Virus record (IMG/VR): IMGVR_UViG_3300045988_175898
Length of the DNA: 36,457 bases
Reading direction: 5' to 3' (one strand)
Source: a virus
Shown here in pieces: positions 1 to 36,457 of the stretch. The notes under the pieces were generated by a model that made no database searches, was not told the origin of the DNA, and worked only from the letters and a program-made list of their open reading frames with translations. How positions within the stretch are numbered: position 1 is the stretch's first letter; each line of letters starts with the position of its first letter. Position numbers and translations under genes: made by a program.

Positions 1-55
1 AGAGAAAAAACAGTTACGGGAGAGAGAAAAAACAGTTACGGGAGAGAGAAAAAAC
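1..55. repeat. terminal redundancy: nt 1-55 identical to nt 36403-36457 (overlap of a circular contig)
   Basis: Direct comparison of both window ends. The unique length is 36402 nt. Confidence 0.9.
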
Positions 56-75
56 TACCTCCCGTGACTGAAAAA
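1..75. repeat. 22-nt tandem repeat AGAGAAAAAACAGTTACGGGAG (copies at 1-22 and 23-44, partial at 45-55) with an inverted copy of its 3' part
   Basis: A6 tracts at 5-10, 27-32 and 49-54, plus an A5 tract at 71-75, give a 22-nt phasing. CAGTTACGGGAG (33-44) pairs with CTCCCGTGACTG (59-70) in 12 bp with one G-T. Confidence 0.85.
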
Positions 76-2758: not shown

Positions 2759-3271
2759 ATGAAAGGCCTAACCGTATACCTCCGTCTTGAGCCATACCTG
2801 CGCCAATGGCTTACCCACCACTTTGGCAGCCCCGTGCGCTTCCCGCCACGCTCCTACGAGAATATGCTCCTCCACCGCCTGCTCTCACGCCCCGCAGCTG
2901 GAGCCACCACCGCCACGGGGCCAACCTGCCCGCCCGACAGCGTGGCAATAGTCATAACCGACCACGCCCAGCGGCGGCCCGAATACTGGTGCCACCTCTC
3001 ACGCAGGGCACAGGCCGAAATGGCACGCGCCGTGGCCAACCTCTTTTGCCTCGCCCTGTGGAGCGAGTGCGTGTGCCTCATACACAGCGGCACACTCAAC
3101 CGCGGCATCGACTCATGGTGTCAGGCCAACGGCATTGCACTCATCTACCGCGAGGGCGTAAGGCAGAAGTTTTACCGCATGCGGCGCCTTTATGCGCAGA
3201 ATGGCGTAATTCTTGGCAAAAAATATACCCACGCAAGTGGTAATAATCACACACACACCACCCACCCATGA
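2759..3271 (+). CDS. hypothetical protein (possible small terminase by position only)
   Basis: 170-aa ORF whose stop overlaps the TerL start (ATGA at 3268-3271). I recognise no motif. Confidence 0.4.
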   Translation: MKGLTVYLRLEPYLRQWLTHHFGSPVRFPPRSYENMLLHRLLSRPAAGATTATGPTCPPDSVAIVITDHAQRRPEYWCHLSRRAQAEMARAVANLFCLALWSECVCLIHSGTLNRGIDSWCQANGIALIYREGVRQKFYRMRRLYAQNGVILGKKYTHASGNNHTHTTHP

Positions 3272-4890
3272 GCACCCCCACACCCCAACAAATATACATG
3301 AACCGCATGCAGCGCGAAGTGTGCGCCATCGACGCCCACACCAACGTGATAGTGGCCGGCCGAGGCACAGGCAAAAGCATGCTGCACGCCTGGATCAACC
3401 TGCGCAACATGCAGGCCATGCCACGCAGCACCACCGCCTTTGTGTGCCCCACAGCCATCAGGGCAAAGACCAACACGCTGCCCTCAATGTTCGAGCACTG
3501 GGAGAAATGGGGCTACCGCCGCGGCCTGCACTGGGACATAGGCCACCGTCCGCCACGCTCGCTCGACTGGCCCGCGCCACTCGTCACACCCGACAACTGG
3601 GAAAACATCATCACCTTCTATAACGGTGCCATTGGCCAGATAGTGAGCCAGGACCGCGTGGGCACCTCCAACTCAAAGAGCTTTGACTACATAGACATTG
3701 ACGAAGCCAAGTTTGTAGACTACGAGCGGCTGAAGGACGAAACCTTCCCCGCCAACCGCGGGCAGCAGCGCGAGTTTGGCGACCTGCCCTTCCACCACGG
3801 CATGCTCATCACCTCCGACATGCCCGTGTCGCGGCGCGGCTCATGGTTCATGCGCTATGCCGACCAGTGCGACACCGAACTCATCAGCACCATCGAGGCC
3901 CTCGTGGCCGACGAGCAGCAAACCCTGCAGCGCATGGCACAGGGCGACACCACCCCCTACCTGCCCGAGCGCATCAAGCAAACGCGCCGCCTGCTCGCCT
4001 CGCTCCGCCGCCGCGCCACACTCTACCGCACCTACTCCAGCCTTACCAACATCGAAGTGCTGGGCGAGGCATGGGTGCGACAGATGCGGCGCGACCTCAC
4101 CCCCATGGTGTTCCGCACCTCCATACTGTGCCGCCCCGTCGAGGTGCTAAAGGACGGCTTCTACTCCTCAATGCGCCCCTCACACCGCTACACCTCCACC
4201 GACTACCATGTGGTCGACGCCCTGGGCTACGACTTCAAGGCACTCAGCAAGATGGCCGGCACATGCAAGGCCGATGCCGACATCAACCGCGGCCACCCCC
4301 TGTGCATAGCTTTCGACTACAACAACAATATCAACTGGCTCGTGGCAGGCCAGCCCGACGAGGACCGCCGACGCCTCAATGTGCTAAAATCTTTTTACGT
4401 AAAGTATGAGCGCAAACTGCCCGCCCTCATAGCCGACTTTTGCCAGTACTACGACCCGCTGCCCATGCACGAGGTGGTGTTCTACTACGACGCCACCGCC
4501 CTCGGCTCCAACTACGCCGTCAACGACCAGGACTTCCGCTGGGTAATCACCCACGAGCTGCAGCTGCACGGCTGGCGCGTGCGCCCCGTCTACATAGGCA
4601 CCCCCATGAAGCATCTTGAGAAGTACCAACTCATCAACCGCGGCTTCGACGGCAAGGCCCGGCTCATGCCATTCTTTAACGAACCCAACAACCCCGACCT
4701 GCTCATCTCCGTACAGACTGCCGGCGTGTACAACGGCAAGAAGGACAAGCGGCGCGAAAAGCTGGCCGAGACCGACGAGGACCGACTCGAAAGCCGCACC
4801 GACGGCTCCGACGCTTTCGACACCTTATATATAGGATGCGAACGTTTCCCCCAGCAGCCCGTGCAACTCGTCGTCACGGGCGGCGGCTGA
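3268..4890 (+). CDS. terL: terminase large subunit
   Basis: 540 aa. It has a Walker A-like VAGRGTGKS and a Walker B-like FDYIDIDEA. Size and position are typical of TerL. Confidence 0.8.
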   Translation: MSTPTPQQIYMNRMQREVCAIDAHTNVIVAGRGTGKSMLHAWINLRNMQAMPRSTTAFVCPTAIRAKTNTLPSMFEHWEKWGYRRGLHWDIGHRPPRSLDWPAPLVTPDNWENIITFYNGAIGQIVSQDRVGTSNSKSFDYIDIDEAKFVDYERLKDETFPANRGQQREFGDLPFHHGMLITSDMPVSRRGSWFMRYADQCDTELISTIEALVADEQQTLQRMAQGDTTPYLPERIKQTRRLLASLRRRATLYRTYSSLTNIEVLGEAWVRQMRRDLTPMVFRTSILCRPVEVLKDGFYSSMRPSHRYTSTDYHVVDALGYDFKALSKMAGTCKADADINRGHPLCIAFDYNNNINWLVAGQPDEDRRRLNVLKSFYVKYERKLPALIADFCQYYDPLPMHEVVFYYDATALGSNYAVNDQDFRWVITHELQLHGWRVRPVYIGTPMKHLEKYQLINRGFDGKARLMPFFNEPNNPDLLISVQTAGVYNGKKDKRREKLAETDEDRLESRTDGSDAFDTLYIGCERFPQQPVQLVVTGGG

Positions 4891-4926: not shown

Positions 4927-4957
4927 TTTGTTAATAAGCATATTATTATTATCTTTG
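4927..4957 (+). promoter_or_regulatory. Bacteroidota-type promoter TTTG-N19-TATCTTTG
   Basis: TTTG at 4927-4930 and TATCTTTG at 4950-4957, in an AT-rich island. Confidence 0.6.
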
Positions 4958-5179: not shown

Positions 5180-5479
5180 ATGACACACACCGAAGCAACA
5201 GAAAAAGCGCGCCAGCTACTATCCACCGAAAGCGAGGGCGCAGTATGGCTCGCCATGATAGACACGAGTGAGTTTCTCAACCTCTCGGGCGTGGCCCGCA
5301 AATACTTCGACCGCTCGGGCAACTGGCTGCAGCAGCGCTTGCACGGGTACAAGGTTAACGGCAAGCCCGCCACCTTCAAGCCCACAGAGCTGCAACAACT
5401 CAGTCAGGCCCTGCGCCACATGGCCAAAGTGCTCACCACCTCGGCCGACAACATAGACAAGACCACACACAACTCTTAA
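5180..5479 (+). CDS. DUF5053-like protein (paralog of 27600..27842)
   Basis: 99 aa. The segment KYFDRSGNWLQQRLHGYKVNGKPATFKPTELQQLSQALRHMA resembles the Bacteroidales DUF5053 pattern. The same pattern occurs in the 27600 ORF. Confidence 0.5.
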   Translation: MTHTEATEKARQLLSTESEGAVWLAMIDTSEFLNLSGVARKYFDRSGNWLQQRLHGYKVNGKPATFKPTELQQLSQALRHMAKVLTTSADNIDKTTHNS

Positions 5480-5524
5480 CTCTTAGTCATTCACACCCCC
5501 ACTCATTTGTTTTTATTACACCCC

Positions 5525-8780: not shown

Positions 8781-8990
8781 CCGCAGGCGGCTAAGTTGAA
8801 AAGTTTATGAGTTGAAAAGTTAAGAGGTTGCTTTAAGAGTTGAAAAGTTTATGAGTTGAAAAGTTAAGAAGTTACATCTGCTTGTCCAACTCTTAAAACC
8901 GATCGCTTAACGCTTCAACTCCTAAACTTTTCAACTCTTAAAGCGACCTCTTAACTTTTCAACTCCTAAACTTATCAACTTTTTAGTACT
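8781..8990. repeat. IPE-5: compound element (truncated reverse core remnant plus full T-type forward core)
   Basis: GTTGCTTTAAGAGTTG near 8827-8842 resembles a truncated reversed core. The full core ACATCTGCTTGTCCAACTCTTAAAAC lies at 8874-8899. There are two nested sets of arms. Confidence 0.8.
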
Positions 8991-10769: not shown

Positions 10770-11180
10770 ATGATCACCCTCAAAGTAAGAGGCTTGAAAA
10801 ACTTCAAGCTCGACAAAAAGCAGTACTTCCCCCAGGTGGCCCCCACCACCCCCATCGGCCTTAACGACGTGGCCTCACAAATTGAGAAACAAAGCACCGT
10901 GAGCCTGGCCGACATCAAGGGCGTGCTCGACGCCCTGCAAGAAGTGGTGCTCGAAGCCATGGCCGACGGCTACTCCGTGCGCCTGGGCGACCTTGGCTCG
11001 TTCCGACTCACATGCACCACCACCCATGGCGAGGACGACCCAAAACTCGTCACCGCCAAGCAGGTAAAAAAGCTGCGTGTGCGCTTCACTCCTTCGGGTG
11101 CCATGCAGCAAAAGCTCGGCACGGCCGATGCACGCACCCGCAGCGTGACGTTCAGCAAGATAGCCACACCCGAGGCATAG
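10770..11180 (+). CDS. HU-like DNA-binding protein (Bacteroidota HU_HIG type)
   Basis: 136 aa. The segment QIEKQSTVSLADIKGVLDALQEVVLEAMADGYSVRLGDLGSFRLTC...VRFTPSGAMQ follows the pattern of Bacteroidales HU-domain proteins as I recall it. Confidence 0.65.
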   Translation: MITLKVRGLKNFKLDKKQYFPQVAPTTPIGLNDVASQIEKQSTVSLADIKGVLDALQEVVLEAMADGYSVRLGDLGSFRLTCTTTHGEDDPKLVTAKQVKKLRVRFTPSGAMQQKLGTADARTRSVTFSKIATPEA

Positions 11181-11181
11181 C

Positions 11182-11252
11182 AAAAACAGTTGTGCCGAAG
11201 AGAAAAAACAGTTGTGCCTGCGAGAAAAAACGCGCAGGCACAACCGAAAAAA
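11182..11252. repeat. 22-nt-phased A-tract / CAGTT repeat locus with a 12-bp hairpin (paralog of nt 1-75)
   Basis: AAAAACAGTTGTGCC occurs at 11182-11196 and 11204-11218. GTTGTGCCTGCG (11211-11222) pairs with CGCAGGCACAAC (11233-11244). A-tracts lie near 11182, 11203, 11224 and 11247. Confidence 0.85.
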
Positions 11253-11265
11253 GCGCGTAGTGAAG

Positions 11266-18703: not shown

Positions 18704-19489
18704 ATGAAGAAAACAGACAAGCTAAACGACTACGTCGGCTTCGTAGAGAAATTCAAGCCCAAGCGCACCACCGATGACTGCTACACCCCGCCTGCCGTGT
18801 ACGAGGCCGTAAAGGGCTGGGCTATAAAAAAATTCAACATCGCCCCCGACCGCCCCATAGTGCGCCCCTTCTACCCCGGCGGCGACTTTGAGCATTACGA
18901 CTACCCGCAGGGCTGCGTGGTGATAGACAACCCGCCGTTCAGCATTTTGGCCAAGATTAAAAGGTTCTACCTCGAGCGCGGTATTCACTTTTTCCTGTTC
19001 GCCCCATCGCTCACCTTATTCTCGAGCTGCATCGAAGAGATTACCCACATACTCACCGGCAGCACTATCACCTACGAGAACGGCACCAAGGTTAACACGG
19101 CTTTCGTGACCAACCTGCCAAGCCCCAACGTGCTCATGACCGCCCCCGACCTGGCTCAGCTCATCAAGGAGGCCGACGCACAAAGGCCCAAGGCAGAGTT
19201 ACCGGTGCTCGACTTCCCGGCAAACGTCATCACCTCCGCGAGACTCAACAATATAGCCTCGCTCGTGAGCTTTGAGGTGCCGCGCACCGAGGCCCGATTT
19301 GTGCGGACAATAGGCGCGGCGCGCAAAGTCCTATATGGAGGCGGGCTGCTCATATCCTCAGCCAAAGCCGCCAAAGCCGCCAAAGCCGCCAAAGCCGCCA
19401 AAGCCGCCAAAGCCGCCAAATACGAGCTTACCCCCGAAGAGCAAGCCATCGTGGCCGATTTGGACAAGCAGAGGGGAATTTTAAGTTGA
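18704..19489 (+). CDS. orphan N6-adenine DNA methyltransferase (EcoRI-methylase-like) with C-terminal (AKA)n tail
   Basis: 261 aa. It has DDCYTPP near the N-terminus and VVIDNPPFS (motif IV, NPPF). No adjacent restriction endonuclease gene is present. Confidence 0.55.
   Translation: MKKTDKLNDYVGFVEKFKPKRTTDDCYTPPAVYEAVKGWAIKKFNIAPDRPIVRPFYPGGDFEHYDYPQGCVVIDNPPFSILAKIKRFYLERGIHFFLFAPSLTLFSSCIEEITHILTGSTITYENGTKVNTAFVTNLPSPNVLMTAPDLAQLIKEADAQRPKAELPVLDFPANVITSARLNNIASLVSFEVPRTEARFVRTIGAARKVLYGGGLLISSAKAAKAAKAAKAAKAAKAAKYELTPEEQAIVADLDKQRGILS
19361..19420 (+). repeat. in-frame 9-nt tandem repeat GCCAAAGCC x6.7 encoding (AKA)6AK
   Basis: Perfect copies read directly from the sequence, inside CDS 18704..19489. 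Confidence 0.95.
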
Positions 19490-20685: not shown

Positions 20686-20720
20686 TTTGTTGCGCGGTAG
20701 TGATTAAAGCCATATCTTTG
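20686..20720 (+). promoter_or_regulatory. Bacteroidota-type promoter TTTG-N23-TATCTTTG
   Basis: TTTG at 20686-20689 and TATCTTTG at 20713-20720. The -7 region TATCTTTGCA is identical to those at 4950 and 27341. Confidence 0.6.
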
Positions 20721-27316: not shown

Positions 27317-27348
27317 TTTGGCAAATACGAATTATTGTAGTATCTTTG
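27317..27348 (+). promoter_or_regulatory. Bacteroidota-type promoter TTTG-N20-TATCTTTG
   Basis: TTTG at 27317-27320 and TATCTTTG at 27341-27348. Confidence 0.6.
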
Positions 27349-28232: not shown

Positions 28233-28278
28233 AAACCGCTGATTATCAAGTAATTAAACTTGATAATCGGCGGTTTTT
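28233..28278 (+). terminator. rho-independent terminator following the tRNA fragment
   Basis: AAACCGCTGATTATCAAG (28233-28250) pairs with CTTGATAATCGGCGGTTT (28259-28276) with one G-T. The T5 run (28274-28278) overlaps the 3' end of the stem. Confidence 0.8.
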
Positions 28279-28353
28279 GCGTTGTGTTAATACTACTGCT
28301 TAAGCCTTTTTTATGGCTCATTTGGGTCTATTTTGCGATATTTTGGCGCAATT

Positions 28354-28386
28354 TTGTGAGCATATTGTGAGCATATTGTGAGCAAT
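28354..28386. repeat. attP right-arm: 3 tandem 11-nt units TTGTGAGCA(T/A)(A/T)
   Basis: Units at 28354-28364, 28365-28375 and 28376-28386, ending 35 nt before the integrase ATG. Confidence 0.85.
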
Positions 28387-28420
28387 CGGACTGCGGGACG
28401 AAATGCAATAGGAACAAAAA

Positions 28421-29713
28421 ATGGCATACAAAATAAAATGGTATCTGGATTTGAGACGCACAAGCACTGAGGGCAAAGGGCGGCTATACATGGTGATATA
28501 CAACAATGGTACGGCGGCGCAAATTGCCACCGGGCTGATGCTGCATAAGAATGAATTTGAAGCCGGCAAGGTGGTGGGCGTGCCTATGGCCGGAAAACTG
28601 ACGCAAATGCTCGGTATTAAAAGGGCTAAGCTGCAGCTTGATATTGAAGAACTTGCTGTGGGCGGGTACGAGGTGGACAAGATGAAAGCGGCGGAGATTA
28701 AAAAGGCTGTGCTGGCTAAACGCGGGAATGATGACGAGGAAGGGAACGGCGAAGGTAAAGGGACCAGGAATGAGACGGCGTTTGGCACGTTTGCCGAGAA
28801 GTTTATAGCCCGAAGGGGCAAGGAGAAAACAAGGCAGGTGTATGAAATGACGCTGCGCAAGATGGGGGGATACTGTGATGTGGGGCGCCTGAGGTTTGCG
28901 GACATCAGTGTGGGGTGGCTGCGAGACTTTGAGCAGTGGCTGGGGGCGACGTGCAGCGTGAACACGCGGGGCATTCATTTGCGCAACATTCGCGCGGTGA
29001 TGAATGCGGCTATTGATGAGGGGGTGGTGCCGGCTGACTTGTACCCTTTCAGACGGTTTAAGATTAAGAAGGAGGAGACGATGAAGCGGTCGCTCTCGGT
29101 GGGTGACTTGAGGCGGCTGAGGGATTACCCGTGTGAGGGGTGGCAGCGGAAGTATGTTGATGTGTTTATGCTGTCGTTCTACCTGGCGGGTATTAACTTG
29201 GTGGACTTGATGGGGCTGCCGCCGTTGGGGGCGGACGGTGTCATAAGGTACAGGAGGAGCAAGACGGGGGTGCTGTGCCAGCTGTCGGTGCCGCCTGAGG
29301 CCCGGGCTATTATTGAGCGTTACAAGGGGGAGCGGCATTTGCTGTGGTTTGGGGAGCGGCTGAAGCCTGGCGCGGAGGGGTGGCATGACTGGCTGCACAG
29401 GTTTAACGAGGGGTTGCAGAAGGTGGGGCCGTCGGGTTATATGTATGTGCGCCGCAAGGGGCAGTGTGGCGGCAAGCAGCGGGTGAAGGTGTATAATGCT
29501 TTGTTTCCGGAACTTACATCGTACTGGGCGCGGCACACGTGGGCTACGCTGGCGGCTGAAATTGATGTGCCTGACGCGGTGATTGATGCTGCGCTGGGGC
29601 ACAGGTCGGTGTGCCGCATGGCGGACATATACATAAGGCGTGATGCGCGCAAGGTGGACGAGGCGGTGAGGCGGGTGATTGAGTATGTGAATGGCGGGGC
29701 AGATGGGAGTTGA
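28421..29713 (+). CDS. int: tyrosine integrase (Bacteroidales phage-integrase type with N-terminal arm-binding region)
   Basis: 430 aa. The C-terminal catalytic pattern is ARHTWAT...LGHRS...ADIYIRR (R, H-x-x-R, Y). The N-terminus is KIKWYLDLRR...GRLYMVI. The gene lies adjacent to the tRNA fragment. Confidence 0.9.
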   Translation: MAYKIKWYLDLRRTSTEGKGRLYMVIYNNGTAAQIATGLMLHKNEFEAGKVVGVPMAGKLTQMLGIKRAKLQLDIEELAVGGYEVDKMKAAEIKKAVLAKRGNDDEEGNGEGKGTRNETAFGTFAEKFIARRGKEKTRQVYEMTLRKMGGYCDVGRLRFADISVGWLRDFEQWLGATCSVNTRGIHLRNIRAVMNAAIDEGVVPADLYPFRRFKIKKEETMKRSLSVGDLRRLRDYPCEGWQRKYVDVFMLSFYLAGINLVDLMGLPPLGADGVIRYRRSKTGVLCQLSVPPEARAIIERYKGERHLLWFGERLKPGAEGWHDWLHRFNEGLQKVGPSGYMYVRRKGQCGGKQRVKVYNALFPELTSYWARHTWATLAAEIDVPDAVIDAALGHRSVCRMADIYIRRDARKVDEAVRRVIEYVNGGADGS

Positions 29714-30874: not shown

Positions 30875-30907
30875 TTTGTTGTTATTAAATTGCATTTGCT
30901 ATATTTG
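30875..30907 (+). promoter_or_regulatory. rightward early promoter TTTG-N21-TATATTTG
   Basis: TTTG at 30875-30878 and TATATTTG at 30900-30907. ACATAAC repeats lie at 30913-30919 and 30925-30931, with an inverted GTTATGT at 30963-30969 just downstream. These are operator candidates. Confidence 0.5.
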
Positions 30908-32817: not shown

Positions 32818-35727
32818 ATGATAAGAATTGAAAACCTATATCGTGCCACCAACGAGGGGCTCGATATCATACTGCACTACTACCCGCAGGCCCGCGAGGT
32901 GGTGGGCACCAAAAACAAGTTCAGGGTGCGCCCCGCCGACAAAACGCCCTCGGCCTGCCTCTACCTGTGCCACACACAGGGGGGCGAGGGTGTGTGGAAG
33001 GTTACCGACTTTGGCGATGAGGGCCACGCCCAGAGCCCGCTCGACATCTGCATGAGAGAGGAGGGCATCGACCGCCCCTATGAGGCAGTGCTCAAGCTGG
33101 CCGCCATGTTCGACGTGAGTGACGAGCTGAACCGCTCCATCAACAAGCCCGACATAAAGCACCGCCCCGCCACGGCCGACGAGAAGGACGGCACACGCAT
33201 CTTTGCCCTGCTTGAGCGCATACCCGAGGGCCACCTCAAAGTGCTTGGCCCGAGGGTGACGCACGCCGACACCGATGCGCTGCACTGGTACGAGGCGGAG
33301 TATGTGGGCTATGTCAAGAACCGCGAGGTGACGCTCAAGTACTCCACCGACAACTACCCCATATTCATGCGCGAGTGTGTGGTGGAGGAGGGCGGCGGCG
33401 AGAAGGCCGAGGTAAAGTTTTACAAAATATATGAGCCATTGAACCCCGACAAGGGTTTTCGCTTCAGCTATCACCCCGCAGGGGGCAAGCCCAAGGCCTA
33501 CATCAACGGGCTGCACGAGCTAAAGCAGCTGTGGCGCAAGCTGAACGCCGACGAGGAAGCGGCCTTTTACCGCGACCCCGCCAACGAGGGCAAGCCCTAC
33601 CGGGAGCAAAAGCTGAAGGAGGCCTTCATTTGTTCGGGCGAGCGCGACTCGCTGTGCTGCCACTCCATGGGCTACAGCCCGCTGTGGTTCAACTCCGAAA
33701 CGTACCGCCTGAGCGAGGCAGAGTACAAGGAGGTGATGAAGTATGTGGAGGTGCTCTACAACATTCCCGACCTCGACAGCACAGGCGTGCGCAAGGGGCG
33801 CGAGCTTGCGCTGCGCTTCATAGACATACACACCATGTGGCTGCCGCAGAGCCTCACGGGCTACCGCGACAACCGCGGCCGCCCGCGCAAGGACCTGCGC
33901 GACTGGCAGGAGCTGCGCGACAGGCGGAGCGACTTTGCGGGCCTGATGGCGCTGGCCATGCCTGCCAAGTTCTGGACGGAGCGCACCAACCGCAAGACGG
34001 GGGCCGTGACGTATGACATCGACACGGAGTGCCTGTACAACTTCCTCAGGCTGAACGGCTTTTACACCCTGCACGACGACAACATAAAGGAGGCGCGCTA
34101 CATACACGTGCAGGGCAACATTGTGCGCGAGGTGAAGGCCAAGGACCTGCGCCGCTTCATAAGCGAGTGGGCCGAGGAGCGGTGCCTGCCGCGTCCCGTG
34201 CGCAACCTCATTCACAACTCGCCAAGGCTGAGCGACTCGGCCCTTGACAACATGCGCGAGGTTACGCTCGACTTTACCAACTACACGCCCACCACGCAGC
34301 TGTTCTTTTTCCCCGGCAAAACGATTGAGGCCACCCCCACGGGTCTTGTGGAGCACTCAGGCGGGGAAGGTCTTGACCGCTATGTGTGGCAGGAGAATGT
34401 GCTGGAGCACCGCGTCACGCTCATGCCCCCCATGTTCGAGGTGGAGCGCAGCGTCACGCCCACGGGCGAGGCGCGCTTCGGGGTGAAGGTGATTGACAGC
34501 GAGAGCAGCCCCCTGTTTGGCTACGTAATCAACACGAGCCGCGTGCACTGGCGCAAGGAGCTGGAGTACAACTTTGCCGAGCGCGACGCCTCGGAGGCCG
34601 AAGCCTACCACCGCGCCCACAAGTTCTGCATCGACGGCGAGGGCCTCACGCCCGACGAGCGGCACGAGCAGGAGCAGAACCTTGTCAGCAAACTCTTTGC
34701 CATAGGCTACATGCTGCACCACTACAAAAGCCCCTCGCGGGCGTGGGCCCCCATGGCCATGGACAACAAGATTGGCGAGGACGGCGAGTGCAACGGCCGC
34801 AGCGGCAAGTCGTTCCTGTTCAAAGCCCTCAGCCTCTTTATGAAAACGGTGAAGCTGAGCGGCCGCAACGCCAAGTTGATGGACAACCCCCACGTGTTCG
34901 ACCAAGTGACGCAGCACACCGACTTTGTGCTGGTTGACGACTGCGACCGCCACCTCGACACGGGGGCATTTTACGACCTCATAACCTCGGACATGACCGT
35001 CAACCCCAAGAACAACCAGAGCTACACCATACCCTTTGAGCAAAGCCCGAAGTTTGGCTTTACCACCAACTATGTGCCGCGCGACTTCAGCCCCAGCACC
35101 GAGGCGCGCCTGCTTTACCTTGTGTTCAGCGACTACTACCACCAGCGCACCGAGGGCAACGACTACCTTGAGAGCCGCAGCATACGCGACGACTTCGGGC
35201 GCGACCTCATAAGCTCCTCGTACAAGGAGGAGGATTGGAACGCGGACATAAACTTCTTTATGCAGTGCTGCCAGTTCTACCTGTCGATGTGCCAGGAGAG
35301 CGTCAAGCCCATGCCGCCCATGGGCAACATACTTAAGCGCAAGTTCAAGGCCGACATGGGCACCAACTTTGAGGAATGGGCCAACGTGTACTTTGCCGAG
35401 GAGGGCGACAACCTCGACACCTTCATCGTTCGCCGCGAGGCCTACGACGCCTTTATAGACGATGCCAAGGTGAACAAGAACTTTTACACCATGAACAAGT
35501 TCACCAAGGCCTTGCGCTCCTTTGCCGCCCTCTGCCCCTACGTGTACGACTACAACCCCGCCGACTTGCTCAACTCGCAGGGCCGCATCTCGCGCCGCAT
35601 CGACGGCAAGAGCGAGGACATGATATATCTGCGCTCCACCAAGAGCCAGGCCAACCGCGAAAGCCTCGACACGGGGGCGCACCTCGACCCCGGGGCGGGA
35701 TTTGTGCCGGACGAGAGCGAAGGCTAA
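32818..35727 (+). CDS. bifunctional DNA primase (Toprim-like) / SF3-type helicase
   Basis: 969 aa. It has a Toprim-like CSGERDSLCC...NIPDLDSTG, a Walker A motif NGRSGKSF and a Walker B motif FVLVDDCD. Confidence 0.75.
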   Translation: MIRIENLYRATNEGLDIILHYYPQAREVVGTKNKFRVRPADKTPSACLYLCHTQGGEGVWKVTDFGDEGHAQSPLDICMREEGIDRPYEAVLKLAAMFDVSDELNRSINKPDIKHRPATADEKDGTRIFALLERIPEGHLKVLGPRVTHADTDALHWYEAEYVGYVKNREVTLKYSTDNYPIFMRECVVEEGGGEKAEVKFYKIYEPLNPDKGFRFSYHPAGGKPKAYINGLHELKQLWRKLNADEEAAFYRDPANEGKPYREQKLKEAFICSGERDSLCCHSMGYSPLWFNSETYRLSEAEYKEVMKYVEVLYNIPDLDSTGVRKGRELALRFIDIHTMWLPQSLTGYRDNRGRPRKDLRDWQELRDRRSDFAGLMALAMPAKFWTERTNRKTGAVTYDIDTECLYNFLRLNGFYTLHDDNIKEARYIHVQGNIVREVKAKDLRRFISEWAEERCLPRPVRNLIHNSPRLSDSALDNMREVTLDFTNYTPTTQLFFFPGKTIEATPTGLVEHSGGEGLDRYVWQENVLEHRVTLMPPMFEVERSVTPTGEARFGVKVIDSESSPLFGYVINTSRVHWRKELEYNFAERDASEAEAYHRAHKFCIDGEGLTPDERHEQEQNLVSKLFAIGYMLHHYKSPSRAWAPMAMDNKIGEDGECNGRSGKSFLFKALSLFMKTVKLSGRNAKLMDNPHVFDQVTQHTDFVLVDDCDRHLDTGAFYDLITSDMTVNPKNNQSYTIPFEQSPKFGFTTNYVPRDFSPSTEARLLYLVFSDYYHQRTEGNDYLESRSIRDDFGRDLISSSYKEEDWNADINFFMQCCQFYLSMCQESVKPMPPMGNILKRKFKADMGTNFEEWANVYFAEEGDNLDTFIVRREAYDAFIDDAKVNKNFYTMNKFTKALRSFAALCPYVYDYNPADLLNSQGRISRRIDGKSEDMIYLRSTKSQANRESLDTGAHLDPGAGFVPDESEG

Positions 35728-35961
35728 AAGATTCAAGTTGAAGAGTTTAGGAGTTGAAAAGTCAAGATACGAGTTGAAAAGTTCAAGAGTTGAAAAGCTA
35801 AGAGGTTACCTCTGCTTGTCCAACTCTTAAAAGCGACCGCTGAACTCTTCAACTCATCAACTTTTCAACTTGACATTCCAACTTTTCAACTTGACATTCC
35901 TCTTAACTTTTCAACTCATCAACTTTTCAACTTATAAACTCCTAAACTTATAAACTTAAAA
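35728..35961. repeat. IPE-16: T-type core, forward
   Basis: ACCTCTGCTTGTCCAACTCTTAAAAG at 35808-35833. TTGACATTCC occurs twice (35870-35879 and 35891-35900) and CTTATAAACT occurs twice. Confidence 0.9.
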
Positions 35962-36390
35962 ATGATGCAAAAAGAACACCTCGTACCCCCGGGCAGCGTG
36001 CCCGACGCCACACGCATACTTACGAATGTGGCCTACCTCATGGGCGATGTGACCAACACCCTCATGATGGACGCACAAAGCCGCGTGGAGCGGCTCGGCT
36101 TCGACCTCAAGCACGACTGCAAGCAACGCTGGCGCATGGCCATGCGACAAACCGAACTGGCCAAAAGAGCCTGGGCCAGCTTTGCCCGCGAAATGTACAC
36201 CCTCGAAGATGCCGCACAGGCCTGCGACGACAGCGACTACTTTGCCGACCTAATCCTCCTCATTGCCGACCGCGTGGGCGACAACCACCGCCGGCAACAA
36301 ATGGTGCGCAACATGATTAAACGCCTCAAAAGCGAAGCACACATCTACGACGAACTCAACCAAGGACACCGCCCCGGCGAAGACTTTTAA
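35962..36390 (+). CDS. hypothetical protein
   Basis: 142-aa ORF starting right after the CTTATAAACTTAAAA box. Confidence 0.5.
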   Translation: MMQKEHLVPPGSVPDATRILTNVAYLMGDVTNTLMMDAQSRVERLGFDLKHDCKQRWRMAMRQTELAKRAWASFAREMYTLEDAAQACDDSDYFADLILLIADRVGDNHRRQQMVRNMIKRLKSEAHIYDELNQGHRPGEDF

Positions 36391-36457
36391 CCACATAGGC
36401 GAAGAGAAAAAACAGTTACGGGAGAGAGAAAAAACAGTTACGGGAGAGAGAAAAAAC

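Follow-up and report, generated by a model that had tools for sequence, protein, structure and literature searches.

In Enterobacteria and Pseudomonas, REP and BIME elements consist of short extragenic palindromic units that are arranged in mosaics. The units occur in both orientations with few linker types, are located after genes and vary between strains. To our knowledge, REP mosaics have neither a strict helical-turn period nor an A-tract, and we know of no REPs in phage genomes. A second kind of short repeat, the iterons of theta-type replicons (R6K, pPS10, and the ori and crr of P4), co-vary with their initiator and are indispensable. Within the Bacteroidales, BrickBuilt is a minisatellite/MITE of P. 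gingivalis that is strictly intergenic and has a 23-nt unit present in up to ~23 copies; it combines one repeat consensus with defined leader and tail segments that carry terminal inverted repeats, and reports of it are confined to the chromosomes of P. gingivalis (Klein et al., 2015; PMC4596501). Beyond BrickBuilt, our literature search returned no description of A-tract arrays with a 22-bp period from Bacteroidales or from phages that infect them.

The window, by which we mean the whole 36,457-nt stretch of DNA that was analyzed (IMG/VR record IMGVR_UViG_3300045988_175898), is the circular genome of a temperate phage (~36.4 kb); almost all of its genes are on the + strand. A megablast search with 12 kb found no similar phage records. 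The genes that bear on the two loci described below are as follows.

2759-3271, open reading frame (ORF) upstream of TerL
3268-4890, TerL
10770-11180, + strand, gene for an HU-HIG DNA-binding protein (PF18291, 4.2e-25), directly upstream of locus B
28421-29713, Bacteroidetes-type integrase
32818-35727, 969-aa protein with a Walker A/B helicase part (GRSGKS ... VLVDDCD)
35962-36390, + strand, 142-aa gene, after the 969-aa protein gene and directly upstream of locus A

The 969-aa protein has no Pfam or PDB sequence match and matches a single PHROG, of unknown function; it is probably a divergent primase-helicase. The product of the 142-aa gene matched no Pfam or PHROG family. The promoter consensus of Bacteroidetes, TTTG-N17-23-TAnnTTTG, is matched four times on the + strand (4927-4957, 20686-20720, 27317-27348, and 30875-30907); chance alone would yield 0.78 matches. 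These matches, none of which is near the arrays, may define transcription units of the phage that are read by the host polymerase.

Several other features of the genome were recorded. Adjacent DUF4160 and DUF2442+HTH genes (1397-1642 and 1678-2085) lie between lysis-like genes and the terminase region. Within ORF 18704-19489, a 9-nt unit is repeated in tandem without a mismatch (GCCAAAGCC x6.7; 19361-19420) and encodes an Ala/Lys-rich protein repeat, and contig G006 begins in a similar GGC-rich repeat. Cassettes of ~150 nt, containing AGTTGAAA-type 8-mers, a core (AGAGGTTACCTCTGC) and complementary AACTTTTC 8-mers, are found at almost every gene junction between 96 and 35961 (e.g., 781-932, 8793-8981, and 35728-35962) and form hairpins of up to 76 bp (I12). 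A related lineage, L394, has neither these cassettes nor the arrays described below.

Two loci, A and B, occupy the untranslated gaps after two + strand genes. We propose that both are short, hypervariable, minisatellite-like arrays of 22-bp bricks and are the phage members of a class of 21/22-bp (two-helical-turn) phased intergenic repeats dispersed in the chromosomes of many Bacteroidales, the group to which the hosts of this phage belong. On this reading, to which we assign a probability of a little under 0.6, they are accessory and serve neither as pac/cos sites nor as attP nor as an iteron origin. As in the rest of that class, the arrays hold an exact 21/22-nt register and are non-coding, their words vary while the frame is kept, and their copy number differs between relatives. 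The components of the two loci are the following.

36390-36399, + strand, left arm of the outer stem of locus A (ACCACATAGG), with 10 Watson-Crick pairs to 84-93 (CCTATGTGGT)
36403-36457, + strand, end copy of the 55-nt array (AGAGAAAAAACAGTTACGGGAG x2.5; repeat family D9), identical to 1-55 and the same DNA in the circle
1-55, + strand, two and a half a-type bricks (AGAGAAAAAAC + AGTTACGGGAG) with a period of exactly 22 nt
56-77, + strand, one b-type brick (TACCTCCCGTGACTG + AAAAATC)
78-99, + strand, last 22-nt brick of locus A (CCTCCCCCTATGTGGTAGGGTT), which holds the right arm of the outer stem (84-93)
11182-11253, + strand, locus B, an A5C run followed by three bricks in 22-nt register
11188-11209, + strand, locus B brick 1 (AGTTGTGCCGA+AGAGAAAAAAC)
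11210-11231, + strand, locus B brick 2 (AGTTGTGCCTGCG+AGAAAAAAC)
11232-11253, + strand, locus B brick 3 (GCGCAGGCACAACCG+AAAAAAG)

A first-pass annotation had described repeats and hairpins at both loci, and all of its coordinates for them check out. At locus A, AGAGAAAAAACAGTTACGGGAG is repeated 2.5 times at 1-55 with a period of 22 (TRF score 110, 100% matches). The 12-position stem between 33-44 (CAGTTACGGGAG) and 59-70 (CTCCCGTGACTG) consists of 11 Watson-Crick pairs and one T.G; its right arm, which is preceded by TAC and followed by A5 at 71-75, can pair with either 33-44 or 11-22. The word of the b-type brick (56-77) is the inverted complement of the a-type word, with the A-run remaining on the + strand. 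The 10-bp outer stem surrounds the entire locus. Its left arm begins with the base that completes the stop codon in the 142-aa gene and corresponds to the first CATAGG word, which opens the array in all relatives. On the other side, a small hairpin followed by T-rich sequence (83-97 plus TTTTGAGTTT) runs into an ordinary intergenic palindrome (96-230). At locus B, AAAAACAGTTGTGCC occurs at 11182 and 11204, 22 nt apart, and a perfect 12-bp stem joins 11211-11222 to 11233-11244 around AGAAAAAACG, with A6 at 11247-11252.

The two loci share more than a period. The 11-mer AAAAAACAGTT, with at most one mismatch, has seven matches, compared to 0.57 expected, and none of 100 shuffles reached seven; GAAAAAAC is present only at both loci and at one coding site. 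That loci A and B follow one grammar and form one class, as had been suggested, is borne out by the relatives, which draw on the same word vocabulary at both. The "conserved AGAAAAAACAGTT box" ascribed to them stands only for its A-run part (AGAGAAAAAAC), which is conserved; the CAGTT part varies in relatives.

Approximately 12 close relatives carry an array at these two gene junctions, with two array loci and no more in each phage genome. At the locus-A junction, an array was present in all 10 recovered relatives whose 142-aa homolog is 94-98% identical. When units were defined by cutting after each A-run, every unit was exactly 22 nt, both at locus A of the window and its 10 relatives and at locus B. 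Each unit consists of an 11-16-nt GC-rich word followed by A4-6C on the + strand. Bricks of the a-type have an 11-nt word plus AGAGAAAAAAC, while in those of the b-type TTAAAAC or TAAAAAC follows a word of 15-16 nt. Frequently, a b-type word is the inverted complement of an a-type word, with the + polarity of the A-run and the register kept.

The vocabulary across relatives includes GATTGTGCCGA, AGTTACGGGAG, TACCTCCCGTGACTG, GCGTCGCCTATACAAT, TATCCCCCTATGTCG, GATATCGACTG, and GCTCCGCCCATTCCG. These words are reshuffled between the genomes, with one to three occurrences each, and copy numbers also differ. Median identity is 95.6% for the DNA of the upstream flanking gene and 92.2% for the downstream gene, compared to 56% for the intergenic region. 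Two relatives, L021 and L022, are exactly one brick apart, a copy-number change of the slippage type, and a brick found once in the window is present in at least three copies in L319. The locus-B arrays of G006, G007, and L319 contain different bricks from the same vocabulary. Between genomes, whole bricks are gained, lost, or replaced, and the 22-nt register is kept.

We rejected two CRISPR-related readings of these sequences. The motifs GTTGTG...CACAAC at locus B and UCUAC...GUAG in L024 have what we take to be a resemblance to Cas13b or Cas12a repeats; mimicry of such repeats was discarded, as the motif is not common to other bricks or relatives. A CRISPR mini-array would have repeats of at least 23 nt and unique spacers of at least 26 nt, whereas the constant part here is 7-11 nt, the variable part is 11-16 nt, and the variable parts are themselves repeated.

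Some relatives have no array at one of these junctions. In G001, the HU gene, locus B, and the 43-bp inverted repeat are jointly absent, and locus A is kept. In L394, in which the neighboring protein is 90% identical and the gene order is the same (972, 133, 99, 82, and 120 aa), the locus-A position is a plain 52-nt gap. Relatives at 55-67% identity have no gap at this junction, as the 142-aa homolog directly abuts the next gene. The arrays are dispensable in related phages.

A-tracts at this spacing had been predicted to bend the DNA, and a curvature model agrees. We used a dinucleotide wedge model with Bolshoy-type parameters, and its values are indicative only; in controls, A6 runs bent at periods of 10/11 and 21/22 but not 16 or 26. 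Locus A ranked 12 among 7281 windows and is the third most curved region of the genome, while locus B was moderately curved (rank 280 of 7281). Two more curved regions are a putative attP arm at ~28.26-28.41 kb (28261-28410) and the non-coding gap upstream of the terminase at ~2.2-2.33 kb. The relative and host arrays that we tested gave values of 0.72-0.90 in the same model, compared to a genome median of 0.977. As curvature follows almost automatically from A-runs 22 bp apart, it is not independent evidence of selection. The model points to better candidates than locus A for two functions. The repeat field at 2.2-2.5 kb, directly upstream of the terminase genes, is predicted to be more curved and would be a better pac/cos candidate, and the ~28.26-28.41 kb region, next to the integrase, would be a better-placed attP. 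We rejected attP at the arrays themselves: the integrase is at 28421-29713, and the contigs of relatives break in a tRNA fragment.

Pac/cos recognition, a replication origin, and the binding of partition proteins had been named as candidate roles for the two loci. None is supported, given that L394 lacks the locus-A array, G001 lacks locus B, the words vary, and arrays of this kind occupy dozens of host chromosomal sites. Absence of the loci from close relatives had been part of the condition set beforehand for disfavoring a packaging or origin role. For an origin or cis-acting replication region, the idea would be that the 969-aa primase-helicase binds the 22-bp repeats as iterons and that locus B is a second site, as in the ori and crr of P4. 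Locus A lies two genes downstream of this Walker A/B protein, 22 bp is the classical spacing of iterons, and only the attP and terminase-upstream regions are more curved. However, over its C-terminal ~440 residues the primase-helicase shows 97.3-99.3% identity in relatives whose array words differ considerably, and L394 encodes a 972-aa homolog in the same gene order with no array. The absence of locus B from G001 and the presence of the class at dozens of chromosomal loci also argue against an origin, as does GC skew, which had been put forward as a check and follows gene orientation only. We consider an origin very unlikely.

The contig ends fall in locus A, which could suggest a packaging site. 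The first and last 55 nt are identical, and 55 is the only length at which prefix and suffix agree. This overlap spans the array exactly, from the first array base to the end of the third A-run; were the break placed at random, it would match the array bounds in ~1 of 36,400 cases. The terminal identity is an assembly overlap with k = 55 and does not mark genome termini. Since the overlap coincides exactly with the array, the repeat is the most likely cause of the break: an array of period 22 that is longer than k, or that varies in copy number, gives exactly such a break in a de Bruijn graph. If so, the true array has 2.5 + n copies or is variable in the population. The overlap thus suggests that the 2.5 copies at locus A are probably a lower bound, collapsed by the assembler. 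Many contigs of the host metagenome-assembled genome (MAG) G002 likewise terminate in arrays, and the relative L319 terminates inside its locus-B array; that contig (G308) has its other end outside locus A. In a third parallel, the contigs of G001 and G007 are interrupted in an attP tRNA fragment that is common to the host. Their "direct terminal repeats" in IMG/VR (L263 and L266) lie in this tRNA-Pro-like fragment; rather than virion termini, they mark branch points in the assembly graph, the sequence there being common to phage and host. As arrays break short-read assemblies, the "terminal repeats" of viral contigs may be repeat artifacts rather than termini.

A role in packaging, with locus A as a pac or accessory cos site at which the small terminase would act on bent DNA, is therefore deprived of the contig ends as an argument, although repeats and intrinsic bending are typical of pac/cos regions. 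Locus A is also ~2.7 kb upstream of ORF 2759-3271 and TerL, locus B is among virion genes, and the more curved repeat field is immediately next to these genes on their upstream side. With the array absent or wholly different in relatives, we regard packaging as extremely unlikely.

The same grammar occurs in host chromosomes. With one genome per species, the pattern AGAAAAAAC-N13-AGAAAAAAC matched on several contigs of single Bacteroidales MAGs. Counting three A-runs at a 22-nt period against a control, we obtained 104 matches in G002 (control 0), nine in G003 (control 0), and five in G004 (control 1). The arrays of G002 occupy at least 46 places, in either orientation; dispersal over many loci is thus a property of the hosts and not of the phage, with its two loci. 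Across 301 genomes of G004's family, hand sums from the tables gave 216 matches in 35 genomes at period 22 (control 44), 101 matches in 30 genomes at period 21 (control 38), and four matches in three genomes at period 26 (control 1). Such counts can be inflated by sub-multiples (11-mers for 22, 7-mers for 21); these were few, and most listed matches were true 21/22-nt units.

Host words are genome-specific, and some are phage-like, including CTACATAGGC... and CTACCTC... in G003 and AAAAACAGTACGGAGAGG in G138. Arrays in G003 and G304 terminate in a hairpin plus T-run, and in G138 whole arrays are palindromic. With rough gene calls for the host MAGs (long ORFs, GC3 filter), 21 arrays in G002 were distributed over seven convergent, five divergent, four same-strand, and five opposite-strand contexts, and the eight arrays in G304 were split evenly, with two in each. 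Host arrays have no preferred orientation or gene context. TerL relatives were present in 22 of the 301 genomes of the family of G004, which is recorded as "uncultured Prevotellaceae bacterium." This family provides the hosts of the phage group.

Other observations concern individual host genomes. An element of the G304 type, with TGAAACAT word arms, ACTGTGGGAGCGATTCAAAAAC bricks, and a terminator hairpin, is located at 5341-5500 on a 49-kb viral contig, L292 (IMG/VR 3300029828_000159). Thus, carriage of this repeat class by phages is not confined to the lineage of the window. In G003, a Bacteroidaceae MAG, a promoter-like box (TAnnTTTG, with TTTG ~20 nt upstream in L260) lies 60-90 nt downstream of the arrays in L258-L261 (e.g., ~1330-1350 in L259). 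As the box is on the opposite strand and faces the array, it could give rise to a short transcript that ends in the array hairpin and T-run. We also asked about HU-HIG as a cognate protein and rejected the arrays as its site: none of the eight HU-HIG matches in G002 was on a contig with a listed array, and G001 retains locus A with no HU gene.

The hairpins raise the question of an RNA element. Stem-loops with A-rich loops between cistrons could stabilize or delimit the upstream mRNA on the + strand, while hairpins followed by T6 could stop antisense transcription on the - strand. Both loci begin right after the stop codons of + strand genes, and both fold better than shuffles (locus A, z = -6.7 on the + strand and -7.1 on the - strand; locus B, z = -4.2 and -4.9). 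A T6 follows each hairpin on the - strand, a canonical hairpin and T-run closes the G003 and G304 arrays, and at least five different stems still pair around the same A-run loop. However, A-runs, and no T/U tract, come after the hairpins on the transcribed + strand. The - strand alone has the terminator feature (hairpin plus U-tract), and no known gene on that strand reads toward the arrays. A terminator scan called none at either hairpin, the loops of 10-14 nt exceeding its limit.

Other data also fit poorly with an RNA element. Wobble pairs show no strand bias, as the G.T pairs of all arrays were readable in seven cases on the + strand and 12 on the - strand; this count led us to reject a G.U bias as a sign of + strand RNA, an impression that had come from one pair. 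The arrays of L020 and L023 have direct repeats and no stem of 9 bp or more, and host arrays occur in either orientation, also between divergent genes. Known RNA families and tRNAs gave no match at gathering score at either locus, the permissive Rfam matches being generic hairpins far below threshold. An RNA element would also leave the strict 21/22-nt period unexplained. We therefore consider it unlikely.

A further alternative is that the arrays are a neutral or selfish by-product, in which a slippage-prone repeat was seeded by a repeat-generating process of the host or by a small mobile element and is tolerated in two gaps with no role in the phage. The extreme turnover, the absence of arrays from related phages with the same gene order, and the context independence of host arrays are all consistent with this idea, as is the MITE-like arrangement of the G304 copies, which lie between inverted TGAAACAT word arrays. 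It is less clear why unrelated words in many genomes should keep a period of 21/22 and not 26. Nor would it explain how inverted words keep A-run polarity and register, or why ~12 relatives have kept arrays at the same two junctions despite the turnover. Although a pure by-product has a real chance of being correct, we think it improbable.

We thus return to accessory arrays of a phased Bacteroidales repeat class. Across the arrays, period and A-tract polarity appear to stay constant, and with them the predicted curvature; the words, the hairpins, and the orientation with respect to genes vary. As only period, polarity, and curvature are kept, it is the form of the DNA that matters, if anything is selected. 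Possibly, a curved array presents one face and could dock an architectural protein or buffer neighboring transcription units, and slippage together with exchange between arrays would drive the turnover. The constant A-run polarity could simply reflect the genome-wide A>T skew of the phage's + strand, and the arrays may have no function.

One version of the docking idea goes further. In it, the bricks would hold a candidate architectural protein that reads DNA in steps of two turns and is either common to host and phage or phage-encoded (e.g., HU-HIG), making the arrays functional nucleoprotein sites, such as a structure-specified origin plus cis-replication region like the ori and crr of P4, or a genome-organizing site. 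We find this quite doubtful.

If the accessory-array reading is correct, temperate phages of the Bacteroidales carry a repeat class that also fills intergenic DNA in many uncultured members of this group from gut and rumen. A dozen near-identical phage genomes, in which whole bricks are gained, lost, and swapped at one fixed junction, make its evolution watchable. With two arrays in a 36-kb prophage, the system is also small and tractable for asking what measures two-turn DNA steps and what a curved array does.

How do the phage arrays compare with the systems described at the outset? Like REP and BIME elements, they are clustered palindromic units that occur in both orientations with few linker types, are located after genes, and vary between strains. 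In contrast to REPs, no GTAG-type conserved head was seen in the phage arrays, and a scan of selected phage proteins gave no match to a RAYT/HUH transposase. The likeness to iterons lies in direct repeats 22 bp apart, intrinsic bending, a nearby replication gene, and two loci as in P4. Unlike iterons, the phage words change although the primase-helicase hardly does, and L394 has no locus-A array. Iteron-like repeats near replication genes should therefore not be annotated as origins unless comparative data support it.

The likeness to BrickBuilt is closer. Both are intergenic elements of Bacteroidales in which tandem units of about two helical turns follow one another with no spacer; both vary in copy number between strains at a conserved locus, have dyad symmetry and predicted long stem-loops, and lack an Rfam match. 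They differ in that the phage unit is 22 nt rather than 23, each array mixes many word types with an A-run spacer in only three to nine units, and the element resides in a phage. The flanks differ too, since the phage arrays are bracketed by a CATAGG/CCTATG inverted pair and arms that are the phage's own 8-mer palindromes (the BrickBuilt sequence itself was not part of this comparison). The host 21/22-bp arrays resemble the phage arrays in their exact register, in their genome- or locus-specific and often palindromic words, in their variability, and in breaking assemblies. What sets the phage copies apart is that they are found at two loci per genome, mix word types within each array, and always carry the A-run on the + (coding) strand.
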